From positions 1 to 64,000 of the IMG/VR virus record IMGVR_UViG_3300012920_000022: a stretch of 64,000 nucleotides of DNA. One strand, given 5' to 3'. The notes beneath the pieces were generated by a model. The model ran no database searches. It was not told where the DNA came from and saw only the letters and a list, made by a program, of their open reading frames with translations. Positions 31,921-63,320 of the stretch are shown here, piece after piece (within the stretch, counting starts at the first letter, position 1; every line of letters begins with the position of its first letter). The DNA is from a virus. The position numbers and the translations under genes were made by a program.

Positions 31921-31975
31921 AAATATTGCAAAGACCATACCAACATATAACATATGACAGGGTGTCATATGTTAT
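31921..31975 (-). promoter_or_regulatory. Palindrome + sigma54-like promoter module, copy 1 (drives the ECF sigma gene)
   Basis: Minus strand: ATATGACAcccTGTCATAT-gttatatg-TTGGTATGGTCTTTGCAATATTT. Confidence 0.7.
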
Positions 31976-32396
31976 TGATTAGCAAATAAAATTTATCTAT
32001 GATATTATTTGAATTAAAGGAGGGATATAGATAAAAACTATTCATATATCGTTGTTCGTTTTTGGTCAATTTATTCATAACCATATAATCTTCATTTTCA
32101 CAATTAATGTGGTCAATGTAGAAAGTTACATTAAATTTAATATGAGAATCATATGAAACACTTACTATATCATTTATATAACCAATATATCTAAGTGGTT
32201 TAGGATCTACATATATTCCCAAAATAACTTTAATTTTTTCTACATGGGGCGATTTCATAAATGTTCTATACAATATGGTGGGTATAGAATCAATTATGTT
32301 ATCCTCGTTATGTATATAACGAGGATAACGATTTATATCAGCATTGGGTGGAGTAGATGTATATAACTTAAAATTGTGTGACCCTACTATTTTCAT
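31965..32396 (-). CDS. Hypothetical protein downstream of purZ
   Basis: 143-aa ORF overlapping the purZ 3' end. Confidence 0.55.
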   Translation of the reverse strand: MKIVGSHNFKLYTSTPPNADINRYPRYIHNEDNIIDSIPTILYRTFMKSPHVEKIKVILGIYVDPKPLRYIGYINDIVSVSYDSHIKFNVTFYIDHINCENEDYMVMNKLTKNEQRYMNSFYLYPSFNSNNIIDKFYLLINNI

Positions 32397-33615
32397 CTAA
32401 AAATGTTTTATTATTAAGCAATACCATATCATCGGTATCAGCACCAGTTCCTACATATGATAATATCACATTATCATATGGATTAATATCTCTCATAATC
32501 TCATTTAGCCATTCTTTAGATTTGTTAGATAATTCCAAATAATCTGTAACACCTTCATCTTCCCCATTAACATAATTCATAAAGTTAATGGATATATGAA
32601 TAGTATGATTAGTCATGTTATGTGCAATGGCACTATGCATATTATCAAATGAGAAATTAAATACTCTTCTCGGTAGCTTGGTTAAGGTTGTAGTTTCCAT
32701 AACAGGTCTACCAACATTACTTGATATTTGATCCCAGGTAATTTCTTCCTGATCTTGATATCCTCCACCACTATCACTGTCTATCACTTCATACTCATAT
32801 TCATTACTTTGTACCTGATCCCAAGTTAAATGATTACCAGTAACTTTGTCTATATATTTTTTAGAACATATTCTTATGGGATATGTTCTAAAGTTGATTA
32901 TAACATCACCCAGATATGAAGGAGGTACCATCATATCATCAAAACCCCCAGCTATGGTGGAATTTCTGGAAGTAGTGTTGGGGTAAAAATCAGAGATTCC
33001 ATAACTCAACTGGAATCCTTGGGGAATTTCCATAACCCCAGATTCTCCTTGGTTCAATCTGCAAATTATATCATGTCCCACGTTACAAAGATATGGCTTT
33101 AACCAATCCACATCTCTTGCCAATAATAAATTAGACTTCCTCATGATTTTCCTGGCTCTTGCAGATCCAGAACCACTACATGTACTACCAGTTTTAATAG
33201 TACCATTGTGTTGTAATTCATTATTCAATAAATTACCTTCAAAATCATGGGTTCCTTTTTCATACCCTATATCTATATCTTGTATTATGGGTGCAAGATA
33301 GTCAATACCAACATCGATACCATTTTTTTCGGCTATTGATATCTCTTCTTTCAATGCTTGTAAATCTATCGCAGATCCATGACCAGCATATACTTTACTA
33401 ACAGAATTTGGTATTACTATAGCTGAGCTTAAATGTTTAAGCACAGTAGTTGTGCCACCAATTACTACTGTATGACTAGCATTGCTAGATCCATTACTAC
33501 AAGCAAAATCAAATTCATGATTTTTAAAAATATAAGAACCAATTTTAGCTTTACCAGATGATCCGGCTCCCCCATCTAATATGGCTAATATTTTACCTTT
33601 TTTTACTATACTCAT
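32368..33615 (-). CDS. purZ: PurZ, 2-amino-2'-deoxyadenylosuccinate synthase (PurA family)
   Basis: GSSGK (Ser in place of the PurA Asp), NASHT, GSTCSGSGSA, QGF.LS..FYP.TTSR, RTYPIRI, TTLTKLPRRVFNFS, NFMNY (no TKLD GTP motif). Confidence 0.8.
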   Translation of the reverse strand: MSIVKKGKILAILDGGAGSSGKAKIGSYIFKNHEFDFACSNGSSNASHTVVIGGTTTVLKHLSSAIVIPNSVSKVYAGHGSAIDLQALKEEISIAEKNGIDVGIDYLAPIIQDIDIGYEKGTHDFEGNLLNNELQHNGTIKTGSTCSGSGSARARKIMRKSNLLLARDVDWLKPYLCNVGHDIICRLNQGESGVMEIPQGFQLSYGISDFYPNTTSRNSTIAGGFDDMMVPPSYLGDVIINFRTYPIRICSKKYIDKVTGNHLTWDQVQSNEYEYEVIDSDSGGGYQDQEEITWDQISSNVGRPVMETTTLTKLPRRVFNFSFDNMHSAIAHNMTNHTIHISINFMNYVNGEDEGVTDYLELSNKSKEWLNEIMRDINPYDNVILSYVGTGADTDDMVLLNNKTFLDENSRVTQF

Positions 33616-33651
33616 ATATTACATCATTTTAATTGATATGCTAAATAATAA

Positions 33652-33682
33652 AAAAGGCACCATACTAAATATGGTGCCTTTT
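33652..33682. terminator. Intrinsic terminator hairpin
   Basis: aaaaggcaccata-ctaaa-tatggtgcctttt with A and T tails. Confidence 0.75.
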
Positions 33683-33721
33683 GATTTATAACTTAAAAAC
33701 TATTAATATTAACTATCATGA

Positions 33722-34234
33722 TCAGTGACTAGGTATTGAACCAGTATCACGGAAATCATCGATGAGTTGAGTAAGTTGATCACTATCATATTCTTTAGAA
33801 TCACCATCCATGAATGCAATGTGCAATGTGCCACCATCATCCAAATGCCAATCATCTACAACGCCATCACTGCTATCACTAATTGATTTAACAAAATCCC
33901 CAATTAGTTCATTATATTCATTATGCTCATCAATATAATCTGAGAAACGCGGTATTAATTCTGGTTTATTTTCATTCATATTGAAAAACACTCTGAAATC
34001 ATTGAATCCACCAGCTAATGCAACTTTATCAAGTATTTTTAAAAATTTATCATCAGCTTCACCCACATAATCATCAGTATCGTATATATCATAATCTGGG
34101 TAATCTGCCATATGCTGATTAACTAAATCATTAAACATATGGCTCATTGTATCGCTAATATTATCAGATTTAAATTTACCATCTGGAAGATTAATATTGA
34201 ATATATTAGCGATATCTGATTTGGATATTTTCAT
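33722..34234 (-). CDS. Acidic hypothetical protein
   Basis: 170 aa, D/E-rich. Confidence 0.65.
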   Translation of the reverse strand: MKISKSDIANIFNINLPDGKFKSDNISDTMSHMFNDLVNQHMADYPDYDIYDTDDYVGEADDKFLKILDKVALAGGFNDFRVFFNMNENKPELIPRFSDYIDEHNEYNELIGDFVKSISDSSDGVVDDWHLDDGGTLHIAFMDGDSKEYDSDQLTQLIDDFRDTGSIPSH

Positions 34235-34295
34235 GAGTTCTTAATATTTTTGATAAAAATAATAACCATATAACATACACTTGGTTATATGAAAT

Positions 34296-34631
34296 TTATT
34301 GATTCAATAGTCTATCATCGCTTTCTCTGTTCCCAACTACCGCAGTAGATGCATCATCCCCACACAATACTCCAAGTATGCTGTGATATTTGATAATCAA
34401 ATACTCAGTATTGTTAACATTAGCATAAGTACCACCCATTTGACTAATAAGTACTCTATCACCCACGGACAATTCACAATTCTCAATATTAGGATCTATA
34501 GCCGCAACTACACCACTGTTTTGTCTGTTATGTTTTCTAGTGTCTATTTCAAAAACTATACCAGATTTAGTTTCAGTAACTACTCTATCCTCAATTATAA
34601 ATACATTATTCTTAATGGGTTCCATACACAC
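34296..34631 (-). CDS. groES: GroES-like co-chaperonin
   Basis: EPIKNNVFI..TETKSGIV..GVVAAI..VGDRVL..GGT..EYLII...ILGV. Confidence 0.85.
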   Translation of the reverse strand: MCMEPIKNNVFIIEDRVVTETKSGIVFEIDTRKHNRQNSGVVAAIDPNIENCELSVGDRVLISQMGGTYANVNNTEYLIIKYHSILGVLCGDDASTAVVGNRESDDRLLNQ

Positions 34632-34830
34632 TATTACATTTATTAAATATTGTTGTTACATCATTTTTAGATACATTATTCAATATAATGGAATCACTAC
34701 CATTTAACACTGATAATTTTGTACCATCGGGTGATAACATGTATTTTTTATTCAATATGGTTATAACATAAGATTCATTATGTAATGATACATTGTTTTT
34801 AGTTATACCATTGAGTATTTTAGATACCAT
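34612..34830 (-). CDS. Hypothetical protein
   Basis: 72-aa ORF in operon. Confidence 0.5.
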   Translation of the reverse strand: MVSKILNGITKNNVSLHNESYVITILNKKYMLSPDGTKLSVLNGSDSIILNNVSKNDVTTIFNKCNSVYGTH

Positions 34831-34831
34831 A

Positions 34832-35788
34832 TTATTCAGATAATAATAATTGTATATTTATATTTATATCGCTGCTATTAAAAATCTCCAAAAATAGAAA
34901 TTTTTTACATTTATTAAAAGACTGTATAGTTAATGAATCACATATTTGATATTTAAGTGCAGATATAGTTGAATAATCCGCAATAAGATTGAATGATGGA
35001 TAGCCCTCGCTCAATGTGGAAGTGGTGTTAAATTCACCATATAATGTACCATTATGTTCACCACTAATATTGACTACTGCATTGGAATATTCCAAAGAAC
35101 TATTTTCTACATTCAACTCATCTATATCAAAAACCAGATTTAACTGAACATTTGCCTCATGGCAACCAACACACATGTATATAAGTTTGCTGATATCACA
35201 TTTTCCACCAACTATATCACAACTAATCTTACCAGATGATTCAAAATTTGGTAAAACCCAGTGGTCATTATACCCAAAATCAGTGAAAGTCTTCCAGGTA
35301 TAATGGGACATATGGTTCCACGAAGATCTATATTCACCATCTATAAGTTGAGTTTCTATATTATCCCAAGTAACATCTTGTAATAATTTATTATTTCTAT
35401 TCAAACTCAGAGTATAATTAAAAAATACATTATTACAAGATATTTTTTCTATTGATATATTTAACTCAAACTCATATCTAATTGCATAATATCTAATAAA
35501 ATTATCATCAATTAGATTATATTCAAAACTGGTTTCAGATAACATCGCTATAAATGCTATATTGTCGGTGGATAAATCCAGAGTATATAAACTATCAGGT
35601 TTAACAATTATTTTTTTATAATCTATTACTTCTGAATTTCTAAAATATCTTGATAAATCTATATATGGAGATTTATCATATACCAATTGGTTATCAGAGA
35701 AATATAGTTGTTTTCTCTGACTATCCAGACTACAATTAAAATCTATACCGTTACTGTTAACATTTGTGTTATCTGATTTAATCATCAT
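34832..35788 (-). CDS. Hypothetical (possibly virion) protein
   Basis: 318 aa; ATAAATAA at 35808-35815 upstream. Confidence 0.6.
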   Translation of the reverse strand: MMIKSDNTNVNSNGIDFNCSLDSQRKQLYFSDNQLVYDKSPYIDLSRYFRNSEVIDYKKIIVKPDSLYTLDLSTDNIAFIAMLSETSFEYNLIDDNFIRYYAIRYEFELNISIEKISCNNVFFNYTLSLNRNNKLLQDVTWDNIETQLIDGEYRSSWNHMSHYTWKTFTDFGYNDHWVLPNFESSGKISCDIVGGKCDISKLIYMCVGCHEANVQLNLVFDIDELNVENSSLEYSNAVVNISGEHNGTLYGEFNTTSTLSEGYPSFNLIADYSTISALKYQICDSLTIQSFNKCKKFLFLEIFNSSDININIQLLLSE

Positions 35789-35807
35789 TGATTAGGTGTG
35801 ATATACG

Positions 35808-35930
35808 TTATTTATTCTGATGTCTTTTAGAGAGAATTAATATGGCTTTAAATCCCGCAAATAAGAACATGGCAGTAAAAGGTATACCAAATATCACCAT
35901 AATATCATATATTAGCTTTGGATCTATCAT
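35808..35930 (-). CDS. Small single-pass membrane protein (40 aa, not in the ORF track)
   Basis: MIDPKLIYDIMVIFGIPFTAMFLFAGFKAILILSKRHQNK; start overlaps the upstream stop codon. Confidence 0.5.
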   Translation of the reverse strand: MIDPKLIYDIMVIFGIPFTAMFLFAGFKAILILSKRHQNK

Positions 35931-36466
35931 CATTGATTGGGTGTGATACCATATGAATTATTTATCTCTCCCATATTCACACTATTTTCATCACTAAGAT
36001 ATTTCTGCAATGATTTTGATATTAATAGTGATATCAAAGGTATCGGTAATCCCATTATTATGGATAATAGGAACACATGACCATTACTGCTCAATGGATC
36101 AGCTATGGGACTAATTATGGTATCTATTATCTGGCTAAAATGGGATATATATTTACTGTTATCATCAATTTTATACTTAGTATATGAATATATGAAATAT
36201 ATGTTACCGAATATTTGGGTAAACAAAACTATATAAAATATAGACCAGACATAGGTTCTCTGAAGTCTACCCATAATTGATATGGCAAGTATAACAAATA
36301 TATTAATAATCTCATAGGTTATAGACATTAATATGGCAACCCAAAGATAATTACCCAAAGATAAAAATTTTATCATATGGATAAATGATATTACAGATGA
36401 TAATATGGGTATAGATAGATAAACCCATATTATCATCTGTCTAGTATTCTGTTTTTTGATGTTCAT
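35930..36466 (-). CDS. Multi-pass membrane protein
   Basis: Four hydrophobic segments. Confidence 0.65.
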   Translation of the reverse strand: MNIKKQNTRQMIIWVYLSIPILSSVISFIHMIKFLSLGNYLWVAILMSITYEIINIFVILAISIMGRLQRTYVWSIFYIVLFTQIFGNIYFIYSYTKYKIDDNSKYISHFSQIIDTIISPIADPLSSNGHVFLLSIIMGLPIPLISLLISKSLQKYLSDENSVNMGEINNSYGITPNQ

Positions 36467-36795
36467 ATCACCAATTTTGGTAATTTTAAAGATTTATTGG
36501 ATAAATCTGTGAGTGAAAACATTGGATATCCTTTAAAATCAATAAACTGTATTGGATATCTCATCAGATAAATGAACCAATGTTTACCGATTTGTTCAGT
36601 GTAAAATTCACTTATTAAATTATCACCAATAATATTATTGATTTTATCTAGATTATCGATATGACCTTGTTCATCATATCCATCACCGTCAACAAAAATC
36701 TCTATTGAATATAGACCTGCTTTTCTGTGGATGGTGATATCTGTATCATGATCCAGGAACAAATTTTTAATATCAATTAGATTTATGTCATTCAT
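36463..36795 (-). CDS. Hypothetical protein
   Basis: 110-aa ORF. Confidence 0.6.
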   Translation of the reverse strand: MNDINLIDIKNLFLDHDTDITIHRKAGLYSIEIFVDGDGYDEQGHIDNLDKINNIIGDNLISEFYTEQIGKHWFIYLMRYPIQFIDFKGYPMFSLTDLSNKSLKLPKLVI

Positions 36796-36804
36796 ATGTC
36801 ATAA

Positions 36805-37221
36805 TTAAAATATGGATTTAATAATAAAATAAATTGATGCTATAATTGTTGCATCAATAATAATAAATATGAGCAATTTTATTTTATTGATAGGGAATAT
36901 TGGGACATATTTTATCAATATTTTATGATCACCTTGATCATTATTATCATCCACGTATACATAATCATTCAATCTCACTAAACCTATCAATGATGCACGA
37001 ATAATATATTCGTGCATCATTGATAGGTAATTATTAAGTATATCCACATGCTTATCAACTGGTTTGTCATGGTTTATGGTATAAACAGAATAAATCATAC
37101 CAAATATATCGAAATTCCACCCATAGAATGAACCATAATCATGATCTTCAGCGCATATTATAAGTGAATTCCTAGCATGCCAATATAGCATAAAAGATTT
37201 TATAAAATAAAATATAGTCAT
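36805..37221 (-). CDS. Hypothetical protein with C-terminal TM segment
   Basis: 138 aa, hydrophobic C-terminus. Confidence 0.6.
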   Translation of the reverse strand: MTIFYFIKSFMLYWHARNSLIICAEDHDYGSFYGWNFDIFGMIYSVYTINHDKPVDKHVDILNNYLSMMHEYIIRASLIGLVRLNDYVYVDDNNDQGDHKILIKYVPIFPINKIKLLIFIIIDATIIASIYFIIKSIF

Positions 37222-39230: not shown

Positions 39231-39261
39231 ATACGGTAAATTTTATTTGCTCACAATCATT

Positions 39262-39290
39262 TTTCTTTATCTATCACACAGATAAAGAAA
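39262..39290. terminator. 11-bp stem hairpin upstream of nrdJ
   Basis: tttctttatct-atcacac-agataaagaaa. Confidence 0.45.
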
Positions 39291-39305
39291 TTTAATAATG
39301 AATAG

Positions 39306-39662
39306 CTAATCTTCTACAAATTTTGGTATATAGCCTTTATCACTCCAATGATCAATTAATTTCAAATATGGTAAAATGAATTCATTGTGATACAAATCCT
39401 CCAGAGGTTTTTCAGCTATCTTGGCTATTGAGTCTTTTACTTTATCCCAGTTATCAGCATGAGAAATATGTATATTCCACCCAACCAAATCAAACCAGCT
39501 TTGCCATCCACTACCCAGTGCTTCTTCAATAGGCAATGTATTAATATCAATAGGCATGGCATATTCCTTTTGTTTAATAGGCACATTCCAAAATTCTGCA
39601 GATTCTTTATCCAAATCGTTTAATGAAATTGGCTCATTGTTAAATAAAATTTGAAATCCCAT
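39306..39662 (-). CDS. Hypothetical protein
   Basis: 118-aa Trp-rich ORF. Confidence 0.7.
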   Translation of the reverse strand: MGFQILFNNEPISLNDLDKESAEFWNVPIKQKEYAMPIDINTLPIEEALGSGWQSWFDLVGWNIHISHADNWDKVKDSIAKIAEKPLEDLYHNEFILPYLKLIDHWSDKGYIPKFVED

Positions 39663-39858
39663 TTTGTTATATCGTTTTGATGAATTAAAAACATAGATAT
39701 AGTGGATAATGAACAGTGGTTACAATATTATTAAGCAATTATTAAGCAATATTATAGTAACCCAATATTGTAACCAATACTATGTTTTGTGGAGGGAAAA
39801 GAAAAGCCGAATGATGTTTAAAGGGTGGGTGGTTTGGGAGTATGGAATACCATTACTG

Positions 39859-39866
39859 ATAAATAA
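39859..39866 (+). promoter_or_regulatory. T4-like late promoter (ATAAATAA)
   Basis: 20 nt upstream of the gp5-like gene. Confidence 0.5.
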
Positions 39867-40651: not shown

Positions 40652-40652
40652 T

Positions 40653-43730: not shown

Positions 43731-44429
43731 ATGACCATTAACAAGGATGATTTGGAAAGTGAGGTATTAGATTTAATAGTTTCCAATAACCCAGATAATA
43801 TTGATAAGGCTTTTCATATTTTACAAAATAATAAAGAATTAATAAACGAAGTTTTATTACCTTTATTACCCAATTACCCATACTATTGTGCGAAATATTG
43901 TATATGTAATGATTTAGTATATTCATTAACACTTCTCGATGATAGTTTTCCAGATTATTTGTTTAATTTACATAACCTTATTAGTATATCAATATATGAA
44001 AGAGGCACAATTAACACATCACTTGACTTTGTGAATAAGTTTCCTAAATTAGAATTTTTGGGTTTAAAGAATTTTGTATTTAGTAAATTTCCCAGATGCC
44101 TGTTTGATCATCCAAATCTTAAAGCCATAGATTTTTCTAATACCAATATATCTGAATTTAATTTTAGATTATCTAAAATTAATACCAATATTGTGTATAT
44201 TAATTTAGATAATACCAATTTAACAGAATTACCAAAATTTTTGTTTGATATTATCCATCTTAGTGAGTTGGATATACACAATAATCCTAATGTAAAATTA
44301 GATGGATTTGATAAATTACATGGATTGGTATCTCTGGGTGTTATTAATTGTGGAATAAATGATATACCTGCGTATATTAATTTACCACCTAGTTTTAAAA
44401 AGCTAAAATTAGGTAATAATTGTTATTAA
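43731..44429 (+). CDS. LRR protein
   Basis: LIVSNNPDNIDKAF cap, YPYYC, repeats such as LDNTNLTELPKFLFDI..LSELDIHNN. Confidence 0.8.
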   Translation: MTINKDDLESEVLDLIVSNNPDNIDKAFHILQNNKELINEVLLPLLPNYPYYCAKYCICNDLVYSLTLLDDSFPDYLFNLHNLISISIYERGTINTSLDFVNKFPKLEFLGLKNFVFSKFPRCLFDHPNLKAIDFSNTNISEFNFRLSKINTNIVYINLDNTNLTELPKFLFDIIHLSELDIHNNPNVKLDGFDKLHGLVSLGVINCGINDIPAYINLPPSFKKLKLGNNCY

Positions 44430-44430: not shown

Positions 44431-45237
44431 ATGAATAGATTTTCTGGTCATAAAAATAAACTATGTAGTTCTTATTCATTGAATAGATATTATAAACTAT
44501 ACCCCATATCTGATCCTGTAACTGATTTGGGGATACCAAAAGTTTCATTCTCATCATTAAAATACTGGCTAACTACGTTTGGTCTGGTTAATAGTGATTA
44601 TTCTCCCAATTTTTTATATGATAAATTGATGGAAAAAGATCCTGAATTTTTAAATTGTGATACTTATGCATTGATTCATCATAATATGATTGTTAATTCC
44701 AGATCAATATTATACTATGAGATGTTTTCTGAGTTTATACCAACTAAGATAGATCATTTTACCACCAATCATCTACTTAGGTTTATTATCAACAAATATG
44801 GTAACGATAGCAATTATAATACTATTGCTAATGATATTAATATGGCATTAAAATTATACATTGATAACTCATCCCCATTTGATGATAAATTTACCATGAG
44901 TCAACTTAGATTATTAATAATTGATTACATTGATGAAGATAAGATTAATTATTTCAAGATGAACCCATATGTTAATTTATCTTTGAATATTATGCTATAT
45001 GCTATTATATGTCTTTGGGGTGGTAAAAGTATCATATCATTAAAGGAATATTTTAAATCACCATATTCTCCACACATAATATATGGGTTAAATATAGACA
45101 AATCTATGTCTCTATTAACCGAATTATCTAATAAATATAATGGTATAATTATAATTAACCCCCATGATAGGACTATCACCATAAATACTAGTCTGACTTG
45201 TAAAGATATGTTAATTAAATATTTGTGGGATAATTAG
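44431..45237 (+). CDS. DUF4007 (SspB-like) protein, divergent
   Basis: FSGH start, DLG..K...LKYWL..FGL, DP..L..T..LIH, T...DI and SP..I..L motifs. Confidence 0.65.
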   Translation: MNRFSGHKNKLCSSYSLNRYYKLYPISDPVTDLGIPKVSFSSLKYWLTTFGLVNSDYSPNFLYDKLMEKDPEFLNCDTYALIHHNMIVNSRSILYYEMFSEFIPTKIDHFTTNHLLRFIINKYGNDSNYNTIANDINMALKLYIDNSSPFDDKFTMSQLRLLIIDYIDEDKINYFKMNPYVNLSLNIMLYAIICLWGGKSIISLKEYFKSPYSPHIIYGLNIDKSMSLLTELSNKYNGIIIINPHDRTITINTSLTCKDMLIKYLWDN

Positions 45238-47447: not shown

Positions 47448-47506
47448 ATATGACAATATGTCATATTGGATGAATTGGCACGATTTTTGTAATATTTTAT
47501 GTAAAA
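47448..47506 (+). promoter_or_regulatory. Palindrome + sigma54-like promoter module, copy 2
   Basis: ATATGACAataTGTCATAT-tggatgaa-TTGGCACGATTTTTGTAATATTTtatgtaaaa. Confidence 0.7.
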
Positions 47507-47516: not shown

Positions 47517-47768
47517 ATGATCAAAATCACTTATTTGTCATACACATATGCCACCATAATGAAAAATGGTGATGATACTGTTATCACTGTTGACCGTAAA
47601 TTGATATCGGCAAATGATTGGCATATCATTAGATTTGCTTTGGGTGCATTATCGGATACCAGAAAGGTGTTGGATAATCTCATGATTGAGTATACAATAA
47701 AGTCATATAATAGTGACATAGAATATATTGGAAAAGTTGTTAAAAAATTATTTTATTGGGTCAAATGA
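47517..47768 (+). CDS. Hypothetical protein (putative early gene)
   Basis: 83-aa ORF directly after the promoter module. Confidence 0.55.
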   Translation: MIKITYLSYTYATIMKNGDDTVITVDRKLISANDWHIIRFALGALSDTRKVLDNLMIEYTIKSYNSDIEYIGKVVKKLFYWVK

Positions 47769-47983
47769 TAGATACTAACACTCCCATTCTACATGAGTTT
47801 GATAATAAATTTATTATCAAACTAAGTCTTGATAATTCATATCAAATAGCATTAGCCAATTCTATGTTTGATGGAATTTATGTTAATAAAGAATCCATTG
47901 AAGAACTTAATATATTTACTTATGAATTTAATAAAGCTGATATAGATATTTATCAATTGAGTAATCTAATTAAATATCTATAA
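47765..47983 (+). CDS. Hypothetical protein
   Basis: ATGA-coupled start at 47765. Confidence 0.5.
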   Translation: MIDTNTPILHEFDNKFIIKLSLDNSYQIALANSMFDGIYVNKESIEELNIFTYEFNKADIDIYQLSNLIKYL

Positions 47984-48027
47984 CTGAGAATTTTCACATA
48001 TTTTATAACTTAAAAACAAAGATACAT

Positions 48028-49020
48028 ATGCATAATCTAGATTTCAATTCCGAAAGAAACACCTATTCTTATATGGGTACACAAAAAGCTTGGCATGGTC
48101 TTGGACAAATAGTAACCGAAGCTAAGACTGCTCAAGAAGCACTGGTACTTTCCAACATGGATTTTGATGTAATAAAAGTCCCTGTTCCAGCTGGTGAAGT
48201 TGAAATAAATGGTGAGAAATTTATGGTTAAAGATCCCACTAAGAATTATGTTATTAGAACTGACACTGCCGAAGTTTTAGGTACTGTTGGTAGTACCTAT
48301 ACAGTACTCCAGAATCGGGATGCATTTAGTTTTTTTGATAATATTGTTGATAAAGATGAAGCAATATACGAAACTGCTGGTGTTATTAGAGGTGGGAGAC
48401 GTATCTGGATTGCTGCTAAGATGCCAAGCTACATAAAAGTTGGTAATGAAGATATTGAGCAATATGTAGTAATTACTAATGGTCATGATGGTAAATCTGG
48501 TTGTACTGCATTCTTAACCCAAGTAAGAATAGTCTGTGAAAATACTTTGAGATATGGTATTAGCAGTGCTATGAATAAAGTTAGTATACCCCACAGAAGT
48601 AAAATTGCTGAAAAAATTAAAATGGCTCATCAAGTTCTTGGCATGTCCAATAAGTACAATGAAGAGATATCCGATATTTGGAATGCCATGGCTAAAAAGC
48701 AGGTCACTGAGAAGATTACCATGGATTATTTGTTAAAATTATACCCCACTCATGAAGATTCTTCTATAGTTACGGTTACCGATAAATTTAGAGAAGATAT
48801 AATGGAATATATCAATTCGGATGCAACTGTTCAAACTAAAGAAACTAAACATACTGTGTGGGGACTTGTTCAGTCTATCAATGGTTGGTATCAACACAAG
48901 AAAAAATACAGACCTACCAGTAATTTCACCGTAGAGGATGTTAAACTTAACAGCATCTGGGATGGATCAACTCAGAAGAAAAATCAACAAGCATTTGATT
49001 TAGCATTAACATTAATATAG
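48028..49020 (+). CDS. DUF932 (TIGR03299 phage/plasmid-like) protein
   Basis: AWHGLG, RTDT..VLG.VG..Y..LQN..AF.FFD, YETAG..GGRRIW, HDG, T.VRIVC.NTL and T.WG motifs. Confidence 0.85.
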   Translation: MHNLDFNSERNTYSYMGTQKAWHGLGQIVTEAKTAQEALVLSNMDFDVIKVPVPAGEVEINGEKFMVKDPTKNYVIRTDTAEVLGTVGSTYTVLQNRDAFSFFDNIVDKDEAIYETAGVIRGGRRIWIAAKMPSYIKVGNEDIEQYVVITNGHDGKSGCTAFLTQVRIVCENTLRYGISSAMNKVSIPHRSKIAEKIKMAHQVLGMSNKYNEEISDIWNAMAKKQVTEKITMDYLLKLYPTHEDSSIVTVTDKFREDIMEYINSDATVQTKETKHTVWGLVQSINGWYQHKKKYRPTSNFTVEDVKLNSIWDGSTQKKNQQAFDLALTLI

Positions 49021-49028
49021 GATAATAC

Positions 49029-49544
49029 ATGGAAAAATATTTAATATCGTTTGATGTCTACGGGGAAGTAGACATCAAACGCCATACTAGAATTATATTT
49101 AGTAAAAGCTATAAACACGCATTGTTGCTTACTGAATATAAGGTTAAATCATTTTGTCTAGATGCCAATATTAGTATGGATCAGGTGGATGTTCATGAAC
49201 CTGAATTATATGAAAAATTTATTGAACATCAAGATCACAATACTGATTCTATGGATTTCATAGAATATGGTGATGTTGATAGGTCTGTATTTACTCACAT
49301 AGGTTCTATGAACCACATTGTTCAACTCAAGTATGATAATAAAACCAATAATGCATGTGTTGATCAATATCAGCCAAGAAGAAATACTGTTTGGTCTGGT
49401 GATATTGATATACCCAGAGATGAAATGTGTGAATTGTTGAAGGAAAATATAGAACGTATGAAGTTATATATAAATCTTCAATATGAGTTTATACTTGGTT
49501 ACATTGATGATATATATTATTGGGAATATGAAAACAGGGACTAA
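49029..49544 (+). CDS. Hypothetical protein
   Basis: 171-aa ORF. Confidence 0.6.
   Translation: MEKYLISFDVYGEVDIKRHTRIIFSKSYKHALLLTEYKVKSFCLDANISMDQVDVHEPELYEKFIEHQDHNTDSMDFIEYGDVDRSVFTHIGSMNHIVQLKYDNKTNNACVDQYQPRRNTVWSGDIDIPRDEMCELLKENIERMKLYINLQYEFILGYIDDIYYWEYENRD
49049..49080. other. 13-bp stem hairpin at the start of the gene after DUF932
   Basis: gtttgatgtctac-ggggaa-gtagacatcaaac. Confidence 0.5.
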
Positions 49545-55913: not shown

Positions 55914-58900
55914 TCTAATTGAATCTAATGAATCTCTCTTATACTTCATGGTAACTGATATGTCGAATGAAAATATATCATCATTTCTAACATTAATATC
56001 AAATCCCATTTTTTTGGTATATACTAAATTATTATTAGTATTATTTACTATTCCTCCTAAATTACCATTCCCAGAATTTCCTGACCCATCATAATCTGTA
56101 AATCTTGATTGAAATATTATGGGTATTCTTATCTTAAAAGAATCACCATTCTTTATTACTTTGGTGGAGTTATATGTGGCACTACCTATGGTTATTTGTT
56201 TTTCATCTTGTGGTGCCATAAACAAATAAGACCCACATGTATTTTTTCCTATTAAATATGTGTCATCATTCCCGAAACCTATTTTTCTTGGAAAATTTAA
56301 TTCAGTGGGACTACCAGAAGGTAATTTTTCTATTTGCCTATAGTTGAGTTGTTTATAATAATTCTCTTTTGTATCATCTAATTCAAAATATTTTGATTGA
56401 GAGAATACTGGATAGAAAAATCTTGAATTATTTAATATAACTGATGGTATGCCTCTAACTAATAGTCCATTTGAGTTAAAAGTATATGATGAAAACAAAT
56501 CATTATAGTTTTGCAAGAAATCACTACCAGATTGTAATTCTGGGTGGTCTATGTGAACGCAAAAATCCGTTATATTTCCATTGCCACTACCCAAACTATC
56601 ACCATTCCACACATATGGTCTATTTCCATTACCGTTGTTATCAAATGTTGGCATATAGAAATCATCTTTTTGGTCATTGGGTGTTATATATAAGCTATCT
56701 CCTAGAGTAATATCCCTATTTCTTGCATATATGAATTGACCTTTGGTTTGTGATGACTGGAATGCAGAGATATTTATATATGGATCTACTGCATTGTTGT
56801 ATTTGGATATCAATATATCATTATTGGCAGTATTCCTATATGATGCCGGAGTTTGCCAGTATTTTCTATATAACCTATATTCATCTTTGTTTATTAAATA
56901 ACCATCATAGTCTATTGATGGTAAATCCACTATTGGTAATTTTTCGTTTACTCCTGGTACATATGATAATAATTCTAGATCTGATGTATCTGTCAAATTT
57001 GATATTTCTATATAGTATATTTTTGATATTATTTGACCCTTTTTAACTTGTAATGTCTCTATTTCATCCACATAATATCCACCAAATATGCTGATTTCGG
57101 AGTTATTTGATACTGTAGCGAGTACATTGTCGTTTTCATCTATTATTTTAACCGACATTTCTGGTATAGATGATGTTACTAATGATTTTAATTCACTTAT
57201 TATACCCTCCATTTCCACTATTTTCTCTTCTAGTGTTTTTGGTCTATTATCTTTAATTTCGCTTGTTCCTATATTATTTGCAAAATGATAATAGGTTTTA
57301 CCAAGTACTTTGGTACTTTCTGATACATGATCATATACTCCTCTGTTAGTTAATTCAGTATTCAGTTCATTTTTTATTGATTCTATTAATGTGGAGTTGG
57401 TTATGTTGGGTGTTTCTGATAATATGCTTTCATCAAATGGTACATTCAGAGAATCAGACCAATCTGATTCTATGGGGGTTGGATATCCCACTTCACCAAT
57501 TGTTTTTACTCGTATTTCTACCTGCTCATTTTGAGTTATTGGTATGCTGATTTCATTTATATTTAGTTCATCAGCACTCTCTTGGTTGTCTATTACCCAA
57601 ATTACATTATTATTGCTATCAATCTGTCTGGTTTTAATAGGTGTATTAAAACTTATCCATTTTGATTTGTTGGCTTTTTGGGTGTTATCTTGATCATCAG
57701 TATATTTATATTCATTTGATTGTATAGAATTACCATCATTGGTTAAATATCTATACTGGATTTTCATACCTATTACTTCATATTTGTATTCTGGTAATGG
57801 TATAAATCCTTCTATTCTATATTTTGGTGAAAAATTATCTATATCTTGTATAGTTGCGTTTATTTCATCTATTAGTGAGCTGTAATCTGATTCTATTGCT
57901 GATAATCGATTTTGCTTATCTTGTAGATTTCTCCTATCTTTGTCTAATTCTTCTGTTGTGTCATATTCTGTTGTGGATATTCTAGTTTTCAGCGACTCTA
58001 TTTCAACCGATAATTCAGATATTTGTTCTTTTAATCTTATTTTTTCATTGTTTTTTTTCCTTAGTTCATCATTCTGAGTACCTTGCTTATGTCTGTTAAC
58101 TATGTTTATTGATAGACTATCAATTGATAGGTTTGGTGGTGCTGGTTTGTCATTTATATCAGTTGGTGGTATAAATGTGTTTTTAAGACTGTTACTAATA
58201 CCATTTTGATAGTCAATAACATTACTATTATCAAAATCGTTTAAATTCTGATTGTTTAAACTAAACATATCAGATGATATGGATATGCCTTCACCCCATT
58301 CATTTGGTACTATACCAAAATTTTTTATTATGGGTTTAATGAATATTATCATATATTCATTGTTGGCTATTTCAATTGGTAGTTTGGATTCGTTTATTTT
58401 CTGATATAGACCAAATATATTTGATCCTATTCTTATCGGGTCAAATCCTTCTATGAGTTTTAATGATACTTCATTAGTTTCTGGTATTATGTTAGTTATT
58501 TCATAACATGTTGTTTTTTCGTTATTGTAATCTATAACTAAACTATCACCAGAAGATAATAGTTTAGTCGATCCCCCATTATCAATATATTGTATTGTAT
58601 TTAATTTATAATATGTTCCATCGTTGGTTTTTCTAAACGATTCTACGGAAAATCTATTATTGGAATTAATGTTTAATACATCTATAAATTCTCTATATTC
58701 CAATAATTCAAATGATATATTATTTGTCGATAATTGGTCTATTTCTGATATATTTATGTCATTTCTACCTCTTATGTTTTCATCGAAATATAGTATATCA
58801 TTTGAATCGTTTAATAATAGCTTATATGATCTAATTAGATACTCATTTACATCATCGAGATATGGTAGATTGATGTTGAAATAAGTTTGTGGATATCTAG

Positions 58901-59273
58901 ATGATGTAAATGGTTTTTGGTTTTTAATGTTAAATTCATTACTTGTTGTTAGCGCATTAGATGGATTTTTTGGATATGGTAAGTTTGATTTTGTGAGAGA
59001 TCTTCTTATTCCATCGCTCCCCACCAATGATACATTCCTATATGATACACCAGATATCGCATCCATATTGCTTTCTACTACATTTAATCTTGATAGTAGA
59101 TAACCATATGATGGTATTTGGATTTCTGATTCTACACCATTTGCATCCTCATATACTACTACCAATGACTCATCATTGGTAGTTAATGAATTGCTAAATT
59201 GCTGAATCAATTCATTACTGTTTTTCTCTCTTCTAAGGATTTCCTTTATAAGACCATCTAAACTATTAGTCAT
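55908..59273 (-). CDS. Large virion structural protein (coiled coil + beta domains)
   Basis: 1121 aa in a late-type operon; central coiled coil, FN3-like ESDWS motif. Confidence 0.55.
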   Translation of the reverse strand: MTNSLDGLIKEILRREKNSNELIQQFSNSLTTNDESLVVVYEDANGVESEIQIPSYGYLLSRLNVVESNMDAISGVSYRNVSLVGSDGIRRSLTKSNLPYPKNPSNALTTSNEFNIKNQKPFTSSRYPQTYFNINLPYLDDVNEYLIRSYKLLLNDSNDILYFDENIRGRNDINISEIDQLSTNNISFELLEYREFIDVLNINSNNRFSVESFRKTNDGTYYKLNTIQYIDNGGSTKLLSSGDSLVIDYNNEKTTCYEITNIIPETNEVSLKLIEGFDPIRIGSNIFGLYQKINESKLPIEIANNEYMIIFIKPIIKNFGIVPNEWGEGISISSDMFSLNNQNLNDFDNSNVIDYQNGISNSLKNTFIPPTDINDKPAPPNLSIDSLSINIVNRHKQGTQNDELRKKNNEKIRLKEQISELSVEIESLKTRISTTEYDTTEELDKDRRNLQDKQNRLSAIESDYSSLIDEINATIQDIDNFSPKYRIEGFIPLPEYKYEVIGMKIQYRYLTNDGNSIQSNEYKYTDDQDNTQKANKSKWISFNTPIKTRQIDSNNNVIWVIDNQESADELNINEISIPITQNEQVEIRVKTIGEVGYPTPIESDWSDSLNVPFDESILSETPNITNSTLIESIKNELNTELTNRGVYDHVSESTKVLGKTYYHFANNIGTSEIKDNRPKTLEEKIVEMEGIISELKSLVTSSIPEMSVKIIDENDNVLATVSNNSEISIFGGYYVDEIETLQVKKGQIISKIYYIEISNLTDTSDLELLSYVPGVNEKLPIVDLPSIDYDGYLINKDEYRLYRKYWQTPASYRNTANNDILISKYNNAVDPYINISAFQSSQTKGQFIYARNRDITLGDSLYITPNDQKDDFYMPTFDNNGNGNRPYVWNGDSLGSGNGNITDFCVHIDHPELQSGSDFLQNYNDLFSSYTFNSNGLLVRGIPSVILNNSRFFYPVFSQSKYFELDDTKENYYKQLNYRQIEKLPSGSPTELNFPRKIGFGNDDTYLIGKNTCGSYLFMAPQDEKQITIGSATYNSTKVIKNGDSFKIRIPIIFQSRFTDYDGSGNSGNGNLGGIVNNTNNNLVYTKKMGFDINVRNDDIFSFDISVTMKYKRDSLDSIRL

Positions 59274-59288
59274 TTGATTGATTGGTTA

Positions 59289-60128
59289 TTATGATACACC
59301 AGTGACATTTTTACTATCTATCACCAAGAATTTAAATATACCGCCACCAATGTTAGTCCACCTAATTTTTAGATAAGATTTTGTATCTACTGCGGTTGGT
59401 ACAAATTCTGGTGATACTGTGTTAGATATTATGGTTATACCAGTACCAGTGGGGTTAATATATGCAAATATTTCGTCTCCAGAAGTTCCATTATACAGTT
59501 TTTGATTTCCAGAAGTACTTGTAGTCAAGCAATGTAATTCAAATTCTTGACCTTCTGTTATATTAGATGTATCTAGATTCAATCCATCAGTTGATGTTAC
59601 GGCTGAATAGTTTAATAAAATAGTTGAATTATATTGAATATCCAATGGATTTGGTGCTGATGCACCAAAATTAGCGTCTGTTAGATCTATGGTATCTAAT
59701 TTTTTTATCACTTTGGTATTAGTGCCAGATAAATTTAAATTACCTGCTAATACTATCTCATTAACATTTAATATTTCTAATACATCCACTGTATTAAATA
59801 CAGATTTATCTGTATTTCCAGTACCATTGGCTATTAGTGATTTTGCTGTTAAATTACCAAGGTTATCTATGGTTAATATGTTACCAGCTCCTGCGGGTGA
59901 TACTGATATTACATTACCACTTTGACCAGTTATGGCTATAGTTGCAGCTTCTATACTGTTAGATGGTATAGAGAGAAAATTTGTCAACTTAAGCTTATTA
60001 TCTGTTATTGATAATAAGCTTAATTGATTATTTATAGTATTCTCTAATATATCATAATTTTGATTAAATAAATCAGGTGCGGATTTTATAGCTTCAGCCG
60101 AATTAATCCTGGTTAATGTTATGCTCAT
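59289..60128 (-). CDS. Virion structural protein
   Basis: 279 aa, T/N/S/G-rich, N.N...LE..IN N-terminal motif. Confidence 0.55.
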   Translation of the reverse strand: MSITLTRINSAEAIKSAPDLFNQNYDILENTINNQLSLLSITDNKLKLTNFLSIPSNSIEAATIAITGQSGNVISVSPAGAGNILTIDNLGNLTAKSLIANGTGNTDKSVFNTVDVLEILNVNEIVLAGNLNLSGTNTKVIKKLDTIDLTDANFGASAPNPLDIQYNSTILLNYSAVTSTDGLNLDTSNITEGQEFELHCLTTSTSGNQKLYNGTSGDEIFAYINPTGTGITIISNTVSPEFVPTAVDTKSYLKIRWTNIGGGIFKFLVIDSKNVTGVS

Positions 60129-60136
60129 TGTTTAAT

Positions 60137-60361
60137 CTATGTTTTAATTTTTTCTAAATTATCCATGGATCTTTGTATTAATCCAGATTTATATGACATA
60201 CCTTCGTTGTCTAATTCAGATATCCAACCCTGTAAAGTTGATAACATTGTATTTACCATGTCATTTGTGATATTTTCCGATATTTTTGGGCTAGTATCCT
60301 CATTGTCTTTGTCATCATCCCCACCATCTTCTTCATATAAATTTGTATTTATTGTTTTCAT
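60137..60361 (-). CDS. Small acidic protein (possible head-internal protein)
   Basis: MKTINTNLYEE leader. Confidence 0.5.
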   Translation of the reverse strand: MKTINTNLYEEDGGDDDKDNEDTSPKISENITNDMVNTMLSTLQGWISELDNEGMSYKSGLIQRSMDNLEKIKT

Positions 60362-60363
60362 GG

Positions 60364-62418
60364 CTAATTAAAATAATTTTCTACATACCAATTATTGTCA
60401 ATATTTATCATATCCACAAAATGACCAACACTAGTTAAAGATATATTATTACCATCATTGGTAAATATTTTTATTGGTGCACTTGAATTATTTATTATGT
60501 CCACATTACCGGAACCTTTGTGGATTAATCTAATTTTTGATAAATTTTTTATATTATTATAACTTAATGATTCAATGGTAATATTACCATTGAATAATAA
60601 AAATATGTTCCTAATATTAGTGATATCTATTGATCCATTTTGAATCTCTAATATTGGATTTGATTGATGCTCGATTGACTGGCTTAATGTTTCACTAGAT
60701 AATTTTGGTTCATTGAATATGATTCCATCTGATTCACTTAACATATCTATCATACCAGAGTGTATCATTATATAAATCTGTGATATTGTGGATATGTTAT
60801 TGTTGTTTAATTTAACTGATATTGGTGGTGTGTCTGCTGTATTATCATTATTTGTATCAAATGATATATATAGTGGTTTATCTTCAAGGGGCAATGAAAA
60901 ATTTATTTTCATTACCCCATCTGATATGTCATTTGATGAACACAGTATATTTTGTGAGTTACTACTAACATTTCTACTTATCTCATTAGACTCTCTATAT
61001 AAATTTTTCCCAGTGATGTTATTAACTGTACTGTTATTACATTCATATAATGATACATTAGATACATTATATGATGTGGATATAAATGTTTTTAAGATAT
61101 TATGATTTGAATTATTATGTGATATTATATGATCACTATCATCTAATCTAACCATACTATTATTAATTAAATTAGATTCATTGGATTGTCTAATTTCAAC
61201 ATCACTACTAGATAGTATTGAAATATTAAAAGAATTTTTTATAGAAATATCATTAGACTGTTTAATTTCAATATTATTGCTAGATAGTATTGAAATATTG
61301 AAAGAATTTTTTATAGAAATATTATTTAATAAACTGGTATTATCATATGACATCATGTGATCACAATTTAACAATGACATTCTTCTCACATTGTTAAATC
61401 TCACATTATCACAATTTTTTATGATTATCGAACTGTTATTATTGGATGTGCAATTTGTTAATGATATATTAGTAGAATTTTCTATGATTAAGTTATTACA
61501 ATTATGGAATGAATTTCTACCATTACTTATACCGTGATCATCATAACTTGGGTGATTTGAGTTTGGAACCAATATTCTTATATTCTTACAGGTTCCACCA
61601 CTGGGGGAATTATCGAAAGTATAAATTTGTGATTTATTTGATATGAATTCCGGTGAACTTATATCAGAATATGTATTTAATCCCAGTGTGTTATCTAAAC
61701 CTTTTTCAAATTTTACATATCTCCAATCATAATTTGCCGATAGATTTTTTATGGTGCATATTCTATCAGTTATATGTTCTGATGTAATATCTAATGATAT
61801 TAGATCATTAGGATAAGTCAATGAGTTGAACCTATTGATGAATGTGTTATTGGATGTGGCTTTTATCAATAGGCTTTGGTTTATTGAAGATGTTATTACA
61901 CTACCATTTATTGTATATTTTGATTTAAATGATACTATATAGATTTTATTGGCTATTAGACCACTACTATTTATTAATGATTTAAAACCATTTAGATCCA
62001 TTGAGTCCACCTTTATACCATCCATACCAATAATAATTGCACTATTGTCTTTTATAGCTATTGGTAAAATAATATCAGATAACTCATTTACGTTAAATGC
62101 AGATTTATCTGGTTTAACTAAATCATAATAATTTCCATTTATGTTTATTAATATTTGTTTTTTGTCATTTTGATCATTTATTGATATATAGAACTCTTTG
62201 CCTATATCTGGTGTTCCATTTAATTGATATATGTTATGAGTTGCATTTGATGTTTTAGTAGAATCGAATATTGTTTGATTGTTTTGATTTATGAATATTA
62301 TAGATCCATCTGATTTCATTAATTTCAGATTACCATCAGTATCATCTATAAATATAATACCATATCCTGAATTGGGTGTATCTATGGATAATGGATTTTT
62401 AGCTTTTAAGTTTATCAT
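60364..62418 (-). CDS. Tail fibre/beta-helix virion protein
   Basis: N-module shared with 9860..11512; N/S/I beta-helix repeats. Confidence 0.55.
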   Translation of the reverse strand: MINLKAKNPLSIDTPNSGYGIIFIDDTDGNLKLMKSDGSIIFINQNNQTIFDSTKTSNATHNIYQLNGTPDIGKEFYISINDQNDKKQILININGNYYDLVKPDKSAFNVNELSDIILPIAIKDNSAIIIGMDGIKVDSMDLNGFKSLINSSGLIANKIYIVSFKSKYTINGSVITSSINQSLLIKATSNNTFINRFNSLTYPNDLISLDITSEHITDRICTIKNLSANYDWRYVKFEKGLDNTLGLNTYSDISSPEFISNKSQIYTFDNSPSGGTCKNIRILVPNSNHPSYDDHGISNGRNSFHNCNNLIIENSTNISLTNCTSNNNSSIIIKNCDNVRFNNVRRMSLLNCDHMMSYDNTSLLNNISIKNSFNISILSSNNIEIKQSNDISIKNSFNISILSSSDVEIRQSNESNLINNSMVRLDDSDHIISHNNSNHNILKTFISTSYNVSNVSLYECNNSTVNNITGKNLYRESNEISRNVSSNSQNILCSSNDISDGVMKINFSLPLEDKPLYISFDTNNDNTADTPPISVKLNNNNISTISQIYIMIHSGMIDMLSESDGIIFNEPKLSSETLSQSIEHQSNPILEIQNGSIDITNIRNIFLLFNGNITIESLSYNNIKNLSKIRLIHKGSGNVDIINNSSAPIKIFTNDGNNISLTSVGHFVDMINIDNNWYVENYFN
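61178..61322 (-). repeat. 72-bp (24-aa) tandem duplication inside the beta-helix protein
   Basis: ISIKNSFNISILSSNNIEIKQSND / ISIKNSFNISILSSSDVEIRQSNE. Confidence 0.85.
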
Positions 62419-62419
62419 G

Positions 62420-63226
62420 CTATAGTATTACTAGTTCACCATCTATATTAAATTCACCATCTATTGTTATAGATTGATGAACTATATATTGATAATCTTC
62501 ATTTACATTTACAATTAGAGTATCAGGTATATAATTTCTAATACCATCAACTCCATCTGCATCAACCAATTCATATTCAGACCCATTGTATCTTAATAGA
62601 TAGTTATTATTAGATAATGGAGTTGGTGGTAGCACTATATCATTTATTAATGATAACGTTATTAATTTAAATAACACATTAGATCCATCAAATGTGAGAA
62701 ATGAATCTGCGGTATTTGCTGGTGCAAAGTTTATCTCACCACTATCGTTTCTGGTTATTGCACCATTAAGATTTATGGCATTATTTATATCTACTTCTGA
62801 TAGTGAATAAAATGAGTAGTCTCTATCATACCATATATTATCATTAACATCATAAACCAGTATTCTATTATCACCAGACAATGGATAGTTAAAATCATCT
62901 ACATCATCCAAATCTTTCAGGTATTGGGCACCTCCTCCACCACTACCGGAGGAATTTATCGGTTTCCACTTTGCCCCATCCCATCCCAATACTTGACCTA
63001 CGGTTGGTGCATCCGCGTTTTCAGTAGACACATCTGAATGTAAATTTATTGAACCTAATCCTTGGTTTATTGAATCCAATATTGCATCAAATGTACATTC
63101 ATATGATTCCAATACAGGTATCAAATTCTTAAAATTTTCATTTATGGTAAGTCTCATCTTGGAATTACTGGAATTGCTACCAATTTCAGATATCTTACCA
63201 TTTATTTTTATTAATGATATTGGCAT
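62420..63226 (-). CDS. Tail fibre-like virion protein
   Basis: GQVLGWDGAKW and LKDLDDVD repeats, C-terminal YQYIV..ITIDG..IDGELV. Confidence 0.6.
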   Translation of the reverse strand: MPISLIKINGKISEIGSNSSNSKMRLTINENFKNLIPVLESYECTFDAILDSINQGLGSINLHSDVSTENADAPTVGQVLGWDGAKWKPINSSGSGGGGAQYLKDLDDVDDFNYPLSGDNRILVYDVNDNIWYDRDYSFYSLSEVDINNAINLNGAITRNDSGEINFAPANTADSFLTFDGSNVLFKLITLSLINDIVLPPTPLSNNNYLLRYNGSEYELVDADGVDGIRNYIPDTLIVNVNEDYQYIVHQSITIDGEFNIDGELVIL

Positions 63227-63234
63227 GTATTATT

Positions 63235-63242
63235 TATTTATA
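63235..63242 (-). promoter_or_regulatory. T4 late promoter consensus TATAAATA
   Basis: Exact TATAAATA 8 nt upstream of the 63226 start of the structural operon. Confidence 0.55.
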
Positions 63243-63259
63243 ACATTAATTCTGTTGTG

Positions 63260-63320
63260 TTATATGACAATCTGTCATATAATATCCATTGGTACGATTT
63301 TTGTAATATTTTATGTAAAA
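63260..63320 (+). promoter_or_regulatory. Palindrome + sigma54-like promoter module, copy 3 (drives the LRR gene)
   Basis: ATATGACAatcTGTCATAT-aatatcca-TTGGTACGATTTTTGTAATATTTtatgtaaaa. Confidence 0.7.

Follow-up and report, generated by a model that had tools for sequence, protein, structure and literature searches.

The window, by which we mean the whole 64,000-nucleotide stretch analysed here (bases 1-64000 of the 135,755-bp IMG/VR contig G000:C1, record IMGVR_UViG_3300012920_000022, CheckV completeness ~55%), comes from a T4-like phage and carries three copies of a module in which a palindrome built on TGACA-N3-TGTCA stands at a fixed distance before a TTGGYAYG-N4-TTGY core. As judged from its sequence, this module is likely to be a host-type sigma-54 (-24/-12) promoter combined with the dyad that serves the Bacteroidota heat-shock regulon as operator or enhancer, the two co-opted by the phage. 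There are also good grounds to regard it as a promoter class placed before at least nine non-structural transcription units, which the phage would probably switch on by means of the host stress-response machinery.

The initial annotation of the window had described three sites sharing one fixed-spacing architecture, and all three read exactly so: the full 50-nt pattern (19-bp palindrome, 8 nt, TTGGYAYG-N4-TTGY-AATATTT) matches exactly at 31921-31970 (minus strand), 47448-47497 and 63262-63311 (both plus strand), compared with a mean of 0.00 in shuffled sequence, none of the 100 shuffles reaching three. The bare dyad TGACA-N3-TGTCA has three matches in the window, with 0.15 expected. Allowing 3 mismatches, the palindrome half alone gave five matches (2.98 expected, 18 of 100 shuffles reaching five; not significant) and the core half alone gave four (0.68 expected; not significant by itself), and the signal is thus the exact combined architecture, not its relaxed halves. 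The conserved core, TTGGCACGATTTTTGTAATATTTTATGTAAA, is longer than had been described, and the end of AATATTT is followed by the ATG after 31, 19 and 22 nt in copies 1, 2 and 3, respectively.

Scanning the whole contig brought the number of copies to nine, i.e. six beyond the three of the window (Table 1; copies are named below by the position of their TGG). The gap between dyad and TGG is 12 nt in all nine, and TGGYAYG-N4-TTG(T/C), the box and spacing pattern of sigma-54 promoters, is kept in eight; copy 68688 has lost one T between the core boxes, which brings its -24 and -12 boxes 1 nt too close together, and in copy 93159 the right half-site is degenerate. With genes called by a simple longest-ATG open reading frame (ORF) pick (177 genes, 95% coding density), each of the nine TGG sites is located 38-59 nt 5' of a same-strand ATG, a placement that applies to 1.76% of strand positions. 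The words most enriched upstream of genes on this contig are the 8-mers of the module (up to 42.6-fold). As the genes behind the copies belong to unrelated families (g045, g069, the leucine-rich repeat (LRR) paralogues g086 and g094, the paralogue family g105/g116, g120, g129 and g091), the module is not merely carried along with one gene. Copies 86538, 93159, 96270 and 101204 share an identical leader extending to the ATG, which indicates recent duplication among these four. The initial annotation had also stated that N3 and spacer vary between copies around constant boxes; this is right for the boxes and fails for the spacer of two copies, 63290 and 71605 (63262-63311 and 71577-71626), which have the same 8 nt, AATATCCA, and dyad centres that are reverse complements of each other (ATC and GAT), as if flipped. 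A lone perfect dyad, TGACATTTTGTCA, lies at contig positions 95578-95590 with no -24/-12 core, adjoining a strong GC-stem hairpin on the 3' side of g120.

The same architecture is found in bacteria. Using the pattern TGACA-N3-TGTCA, 10-16 nt, TGGYAYG-N4-TTG, we scanned 185,579 species genomes (one per species) and recovered at least 120 loci, nearly all from Bacteroidota, with fewer than 10 expected by chance according to our own estimate. Among the matches listed are Alistipes, Bacteroidales, Prevotellaceae, Flavobacteriaceae, Hymenobacter, Roseivirga and Lewinellaceae, together with a few odd metagenome-assembled genomes labelled Selenomonadaceae, Bdellovibrionales and Salinisphaeraceae. The gap between TGTCA and TGG in the 120 matches listed is 12 nt in 79, 11 in 17, 13 in 17 and 14 in 7; gaps of 10, 15 or 16 nt are absent from them, though the pattern permitted these lengths. 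Downstream ORFs were obtained for 111 of the matches listed, and 88 of these encode a chaperone or protease (43 HSP70, 18 HtpG-type, 13 Cpn10, 6 HSP20, 5 ClpB-type and 3 Lon), 3 encode other proteins (DUF3800, SecA, thioredoxin) and 20 have no match at 1e-5, many of the latter being visibly short HtpG or Hsp20 N-termini. What the initial annotation had suggested with reserve, namely that similar elements precede Bacteroidota chaperone genes, is hence borne out for dnaK, htpG, groES, hsp20, clpB and lon.

Less strict copies follow the same trend: with up to 3 mismatches, five single genomes contain 2-5 copies each vs 0 for the reversed control, and 7 of the 9 weaker host copies tested precede htpG, grpE, dnaK, hsp20, groES or clpB; with up to 2 mismatches at a gap of 12, the module occurs in 17 of 81 genomes vs 2 of 81 for the reversed control. 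Host dyads are usually imperfect, whereas those of the phage are perfect and extended to 19 bp. Of the 119 host loci examined, 14 have a second dyad within 45 nt upstream; ten of these second dyads are offset by 21-23 or 42 nt, distances of whole helical turns, which suggest that binding may be cooperative.

The assignment to sigma-54 draws on Flavobacterium psychrophilum, in which 5'-end mapping revealed a motif, SM4, with -24/-12 boxes before groES-EL, lon, dnaK, grpE-dnaJ, htpG, skp and clpB, a motif confirmed by mutagenesis at another operon (Guerin et al. 2021, PMC9723704). Supplement file 3 of that study classes the chaperone promoters as Sig54 with a probability of 0.999-1, sigma-A promoters looking different there. 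The SM4 promoters have the TTGGYAYG-N4-TTG core of the phage module, and at groS, htpG, grpE and clpB the sequences in the supplement have TTGG preceded, at 12-13 nt, by a TGTCA/TGACA half-site (it is not clear at dnaK, lon and skp); the main text makes no mention of a palindrome. They differ from the phage module in occurring once per host chaperone gene, where the phage has nine copies, unrelated genes and a perfect 19-bp palindrome. The 61-nt windows of the supplement were taken as -50 to +10, as suggested by where the -7 box falls in the sigma-A promoters listed there; on this reading transcription starts 13 nt after the base following TTG, so that the phage transcripts would start at the first A of GTAAA. 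At the level of sequence, then, the proposal of the initial annotation that the phage mimics a host sigma-54 promoter class agrees with an architecture shared with Bacteroidota chaperone and protease promoters, which in F. psychrophilum are of a sigma-54 type with mapped starts (PMC9723704). According to a survey by position-specific scoring matrices, chaperone genes in Bacteroidota and Planctomycetota are likewise predicted to have sigma-54 promoters (PMC12316311); reference 80 of that survey, cited there for sigma-54-dependent grpE/groES, is a Blattabacterium genome paper. The host promoter class is already published; our search, which left most subscription journals outside, found no published example of a phage-borne sigma-54 promoter class, and the dyad gave no match under three spellings in the literature searched.

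The sigma-54 consensus is TGGCAC-N5-TTGC, with GG and TTGC-like boxes at an invariant spacing. The contig, which covers ~55% of the phage genome, contains no match to Sigma54_DBD and no sigma-54 activator beyond a sub-threshold PF00158 match inside a helicase; as far as this part of the genome goes, the phage must borrow the host proteins. One sigma-54 gene was found in each of the five module-bearing host genomes checked, and 4-6 PF00158 activators per genome in the three checked for them. In the mechanism that we propose, host RNA polymerase with sigma-54 would form a closed complex on TGGCACG-N4-TTGT. Exactly 12 nt further upstream, TGACA-N3-TGTCA would be occupied by a dimer of a host regulator; this site, centred near -45, is two helical turns away from the -24 box. 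A host AAA+ activator would then open the promoter, with transcription beginning at the conserved GTAAA. The phage genes would fire when the proteotoxic-stress circuit of the host is on, a circuit which infection itself should trigger, and the product of a phage gene resembling sigma factors of the extracytoplasmic function (ECF) type could hand control to later genes. From the sequence we infer that the class may be early or middle and may feed a cascade.

Several points weigh against this assignment. Of the eight copies with correct spacing, seven have TTGT as their -12 box and one has the textbook TTGC; this objection is tempered by the host promoters, since the base after TTG in the 120 matches listed is A in 54, T in 32, C in only 31 and G in 3, and TTGT is thus normal for the class. 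Copy 68688 has a spacing too short for sigma-54 and reads as a perfect sigma-A-type TTG-N20-TAGTTTTG. A dyad near -45 would be far nearer than classical enhancers, an arrangement at odds with the usual looping model. In its exact form the module is rare, being found in 3 of 201 sampled Bacteroidota genomes, the query's own included; five other phage contigs have a single copy each, and whole-genome scans of the cultured relatives MaF61, PTm1, pT24 and Lak-B5 returned 0 modules, so that the module is not a trait of the clade. The host appears Bacteroidota-like solely through the relatives of the phage. Finally, PurZ, MazG and HD genes are present (see below), and if the phage DNA contained 2-aminoadenine, protein recognition of A/T-rich boxes could differ.

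A self-contained, autoregulated circuit read by the phage's own proteins, with g045 recognising the core and g088 binding the dyad and the likeness to the host a likeness only, has in our view a slim chance of being correct. Both genes do lie within module-driven units, g088 is a stand-alone DNA-binding domain of the OmpR/PhoB/CadC type, TGTCA is the core of the Pho box and the phage dyad exceeds the host dyads in length and in symmetry. Against such a circuit, the same bipartite architecture and spacing precede chaperone genes in phage-free bacterial genomes; moreover, a 4-nt gap between the core boxes cannot be a -35/-10 pair, and searches for a g088 homologue gave no match in the related contig G001 and three other module-bearing contigs and a weak one (E 1.4e-3) in one further contig, all of these being fragments except G009.

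A slightly poorer chance still is given to a promoter for the host primary sigma factor with an upstream operator, in which the resemblance to TGGCAC would be incidental. In the primary-sigma consensus of Bacteroidota, 17-21 nt separate a -33 TTG from a -7 TAnnTTTG; a part of the module core, GATTTTTG, is similar to this -7 element, T4-like phages classically use primary-sigma early promoters, and copy 68688, as noted, has this pattern in perfect form with the sigma-54 spacing lost. The other eight copies, however, have no TTG at the -33 distance and keep TGGYAYG at its exact distance to TTG, as do the host loci, whose equivalents lack TA where it would be needed and often have TTG only. TTG-N17-21-TAnnTTTG matches the contig 24 times, once within 60 nt upstream of a gene (copy 68688), and TAnnTTTG alone is not enriched upstream of genes (9/270 vs 13/237 for a control word); in addition, the F. 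psychrophilum equivalents have starts mapped at sigma-54 geometry and the Sig54 scores given above (PMC9723704). That the repeats are not promoters at all, having instead been left behind by a small mobile or recombination element or being bound by replication, packaging or partition proteins, is very improbable: the leader shared by four copies and the core-less dyad at 95578-95590 would suit it, yet all nine copies are intergenic and aimed at the next gene at a fixed short distance to the ATG, terminal inverted repeats and target duplications are absent, the variable N3 and spacer amid constant boxes fit selection on the boxes, and the host counterparts are promoters with mapped starts (PMC9723704).

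For the sigma-54 promoter and its dyad, three binders can be considered. A host sensor-less AAA+/HTH_8 activator comes first, with the scales about level for and against it; an RprY-like repressor is possible at a clearly lower probability, and the phage protein g088 would be doubtful. The candidate activator has an N-terminal AAA+ and a C-terminal HTH_8 domain in 419-423 aa. Two Flavobacteriaceae genomes have its gene flanked by a MiaB-like gene and lptE, and in one of the two it lies ~2 kb from the groES site. RprY of Porphyromonas gingivalis shifts groES, dnaK and clpB promoter fragments and that of its own gene and appears to be a repressor (Krishnan and Duncan 2013, PMC3646045); htpG is not bound, and the paper defines no binding motif. 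Some Bacteroidota activators have no DNA-binding domain (PMC3372290), and an activator of this kind, REC-AAA+-lid with 386 aa, is encoded ~6-7 kb 3' of the grpE-dnaJ site on the same strand in three Flavobacteriaceae genomes, ABC-transporter, MscS and DUF6268 genes intervening in one of them (G002). This genome has two perfect dyads vs one reversed-control site, one of the two inside a coding region, with no sign among them of an autoregulated regulator gene.

There are nine perfect dyads in the 136-kb phage contig vs two in a 4.2-Mb host genome, and a tentative idea, to which we give little credence, is that the former act as a copy-number timer and a sponge soaking up the host heat-shock regulator as phage DNA replicates. 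If so, and with an RprY-like repressor as the regulator, expression of the phage genes under sigma-54, phage sigma included, would rise with replication and host chaperone synthesis would be forced up; with an activator, the phage would draw the host stress response to itself. In both cases a lytic phage would have a gene class on sigma-54 that is immune to shut-off of the host primary sigma factor.

Other phages carry the module as well. IMG/VR matches were picked by the dyad and TGGYAYG alone, and in 7 of the 13 distinct sequences a TTG follows as well, at a distance of exactly 4 nt. Modules in other phage contigs precede phage Hsp70, Hsp20, tRNA-His and a sigma-70-family gene, the last of these, in an unrelated phage, fitting a step from host sigma-54 to phage sigma.

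A second class of putative promoters can be distinguished on the contig. The word (A/T)ATAAATAA is found 5-20 nt before the ATG of the portal, prohead protease, g085, g092, g100 and other genes; the sequences alone were used here, computed distances being unreliable where genes overlap or oppose each other. T4-type late promoters have a TATAAATA-like box ~10 nt before the start, and the ATAAATAA word is likely to represent such a late class, distinct from the module. The module itself was considered as a T4-type late promoter and rejected, as it has no TATAAATA-like box and it is the ATAAATAA words that precede structural genes; this distribution marks the module as a non-late class. A gp55-like late sigma was not found in the contig at E 1e-12.

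Comparison with known systems helps to place the module. PspF, which acts at pspA of Escherichia coli, is a sensor-less sigma-54 activator restrained by a partner protein, and the Flavobacteriaceae sensor-less AAA+/HTH_8 activator (~420 aa) could be released by stress likewise; in contrast, the Psp enhancer is at a much greater upstream distance and depends on bending of the DNA, the phage dyad being 12 nt from the -24 box. HrcA-CIRCE and HspR-HAIR resemble the module in having a palindrome at a fixed place beside chaperone promoters across a phylum and differ in their sigma-70-type promoters and unrelated sequences; to our knowledge, Bacteroidota have neither sigma-32 nor classical CIRCE control. 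RprY, as an OmpR-family regulator of groES, dnaK and clpB promoters (PMC3646045), may be a candidate for binding the TGTCA dyad, a link to the dyad that we infer. Phage T4 shares with the present T4-like phage a conserved multi-copy promoter class for non-structural genes next to a separate late-type word, ATAAATAA in the present case. Unlike the module, none of the T4 classes depends on sigma-54: early promoters use sigma-70, middle ones sigma-70 with MotA/AsiA and late ones gp55. As far as we know, host-reliant phage transcription programmes are built on the primary sigma factor. If the proposed reading is correct, a T4-like jumbo phage would time a nine-copy gene class by sigma-54 and a heat-shock operator, tied to the proteotoxic stress of infection and independent of the primary sigma factor. 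The phage copies would be idealised operators (perfect 19-bp palindromes at a fixed 12-nt distance) and ready probes to capture the Bacteroidota heat-shock regulator; the modules could also help to predict which uncultured phages infect Bacteroidota and could find use as stress-inducible elements in the genetics of this phylum.

Pfam and PHROGs identify the phage as a T4-like myovirus (T4 portal, gp23-type capsid, prohead protease, UvsX, clamp loader, gp2-like end protection; the annotation excludes g100, 76685-81337) with a GC content of ~28%. The nearest relatives of its capsid are Flavobacterium phage MaF61 (36.7%), Tenacibaculum, Chryseobacterium and Prevotella Lak phages and Sphingomonas phage PAU, from which the host is likely to be a member of the Bacteroidota, probably a flavobacterium. 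A 4-kb nucleotide query had no match in the phage collection. One search of public sequencing runs turned up the stretch in two DNA runs, both marine metagenomes, and in no RNA run; only one of the two contains most of the stretch, and this run may be its source.

The targets named in the initial annotation, an ECF sigma gene, a DUF932 cluster and an LRR gene, are found again, DUF932 being the third gene behind copy 2 (Table 1). The first gene behind copy 1, g045, probably encodes a divergent ECF-like sigma factor: it matches phrog_1740 at E 1.4e-7, its own Pfam matches, Sigma70_r2 included, falling below the cut-off, its Atlas neighbours are Bacteroidota Sigma70_r2 clusters (score 0.89), and among 60 relatives Sigma70_r2 is present in 35, r4_2 in 23 and Sigma70_ECF in 14. 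Outside the window, g086 is followed on its 3' side by g087 (Dda/PIF1-type helicase) and then by g088 (65772-66209), a 145-aa stand-alone winged helix with matches to CadC (1.1e-9) and PhoB (7.2e-8). A word-index protein search with g045 and g088 matched each to itself only. Two of the phage proteins, P0001 and P0063, are also indexed on a 182,191-bp contig, and a more complete assembly of the phage therefore exists. We also considered whether the genes behind the modules are themselves members of the host heat-shock regulon and rejected this, since they comprise sigma-like, DUF932, LRR and unknown genes and no chaperones, and a co-opted copy is preferred.

Table 1. Module copies, genes behind them and further features of the contig (transcription starts are predicted)
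Feature	Position	Strand	Remark
TGG of the nine copies	31942(-), 47476(+), 63290(+), 68688(-), 71605(+), 86538(+), 93159(+), 96270(-), 101204(+)		contig scan
Copy 1 dyad, ATATGACA-CCC-TGTCATAT	31952-31970	-	centre ~45 nt 5' of predicted start
Copy 1 core, TTGGTATG-GTCT-TTGC-AATATTT	31921-31943	-	-24 box TGGTATG 31942-31936; -12 box TTGC 31931-31928
Copy 1 predicted start	31915	-	geometry of F. psychrophilum SM4 promoters with mapped starts
Copy 2 dyad, ATATGACA-ATA-TGTCATAT	47448-47466	+	exact match
Copy 2 core, TTGGCACG-ATTT-TTGT-AATATTT	47475-47497	+	-24 box 47476-47482; -12 box 47487-47490
Copy 2 predicted start	47503	+	first A of conserved GTAAA
Copy 3 dyad, ATATGACA-ATC-TGTCATAT	63262-63280	+	exact match
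Copy 3 core, TTGGTACG-ATTT-TTGT-AATATTT	63289-63311	+	exact match
Copy 3 predicted start	63317	+	SM4 geometry
g045, putative divergent ECF-type sigma-70-family protein (302 aa), C-terminal extension	30981-31889	-	first gene behind copy 1
g044, g043, g042, three small ORFs just 3' of g045	29959-30994	-	no family match; presumed one transcription unit
g069 (83 aa), g070 (72 aa), g071 (DUF932, 48028-49020, E 2.3e-54), g072	47517-49544	+	behind copy 2
g086, LRR protein	63334-64000, continues to contig 64125	+	behind copy 3
(A/T)ATAAATAA words, window	21646-21681, 63227-63245		before portal g028 and before g085
(A/T)ATAAATAA words, contig	68714-68728, 116880-116890, others
REC-AAA+ activator loci, host genomes	L192 (G002:C1:4186001-4196000), L171, L173
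LRR ORFs, window	11-340, 7814-8668, 22888-23842, 43731-44429, 63334-64000		Pfam
LRR ORFs, contig	66255-68059, 71643-76644, 87293-89850, 126818-127288, 132723-133643		Pfam
PurZ-type gene set, window	32368-33615	-
PurZ-type gene set, contig	104925-106157, 116189-116914, 134460-134996, 134986-135513	-

The contig has ~18 ORFs with LRR Pfam matches, many of them paralogous, and only some of their clusters begin with a module; a DUF4007 protein (44431-45237, plus strand, Pfam 1.7e-20) is encoded amid LRR and unknown genes. The family-B DNA polymerase is split into two parts, at 96490-97944 (plus) and 131541-132719 (minus), 34 kb apart and on opposite strands. A PurZ-like adenylosuccinate synthetase (phrog_1211 'aminoadenylosuccinate synthetase', 1.2e-37) is found alongside adenylosuccinate lyase, an HD-type dNMP phosphatase, MazG and guanylate kinase; this is the gene set of phages that swap adenine for 2-aminoadenine and, if the DNA is indeed of this type, all A/T-rich promoter boxes would be chemically modified. 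The phage also has a Cpn10/GroES-like gene (34296-34625, minus strand, Pfam 1.4e-12) with no module upstream; its upstream region carries AAAATGATGTAA, and similar AATGATGT words before g047, g031 and g158 may mark a further promoter class.

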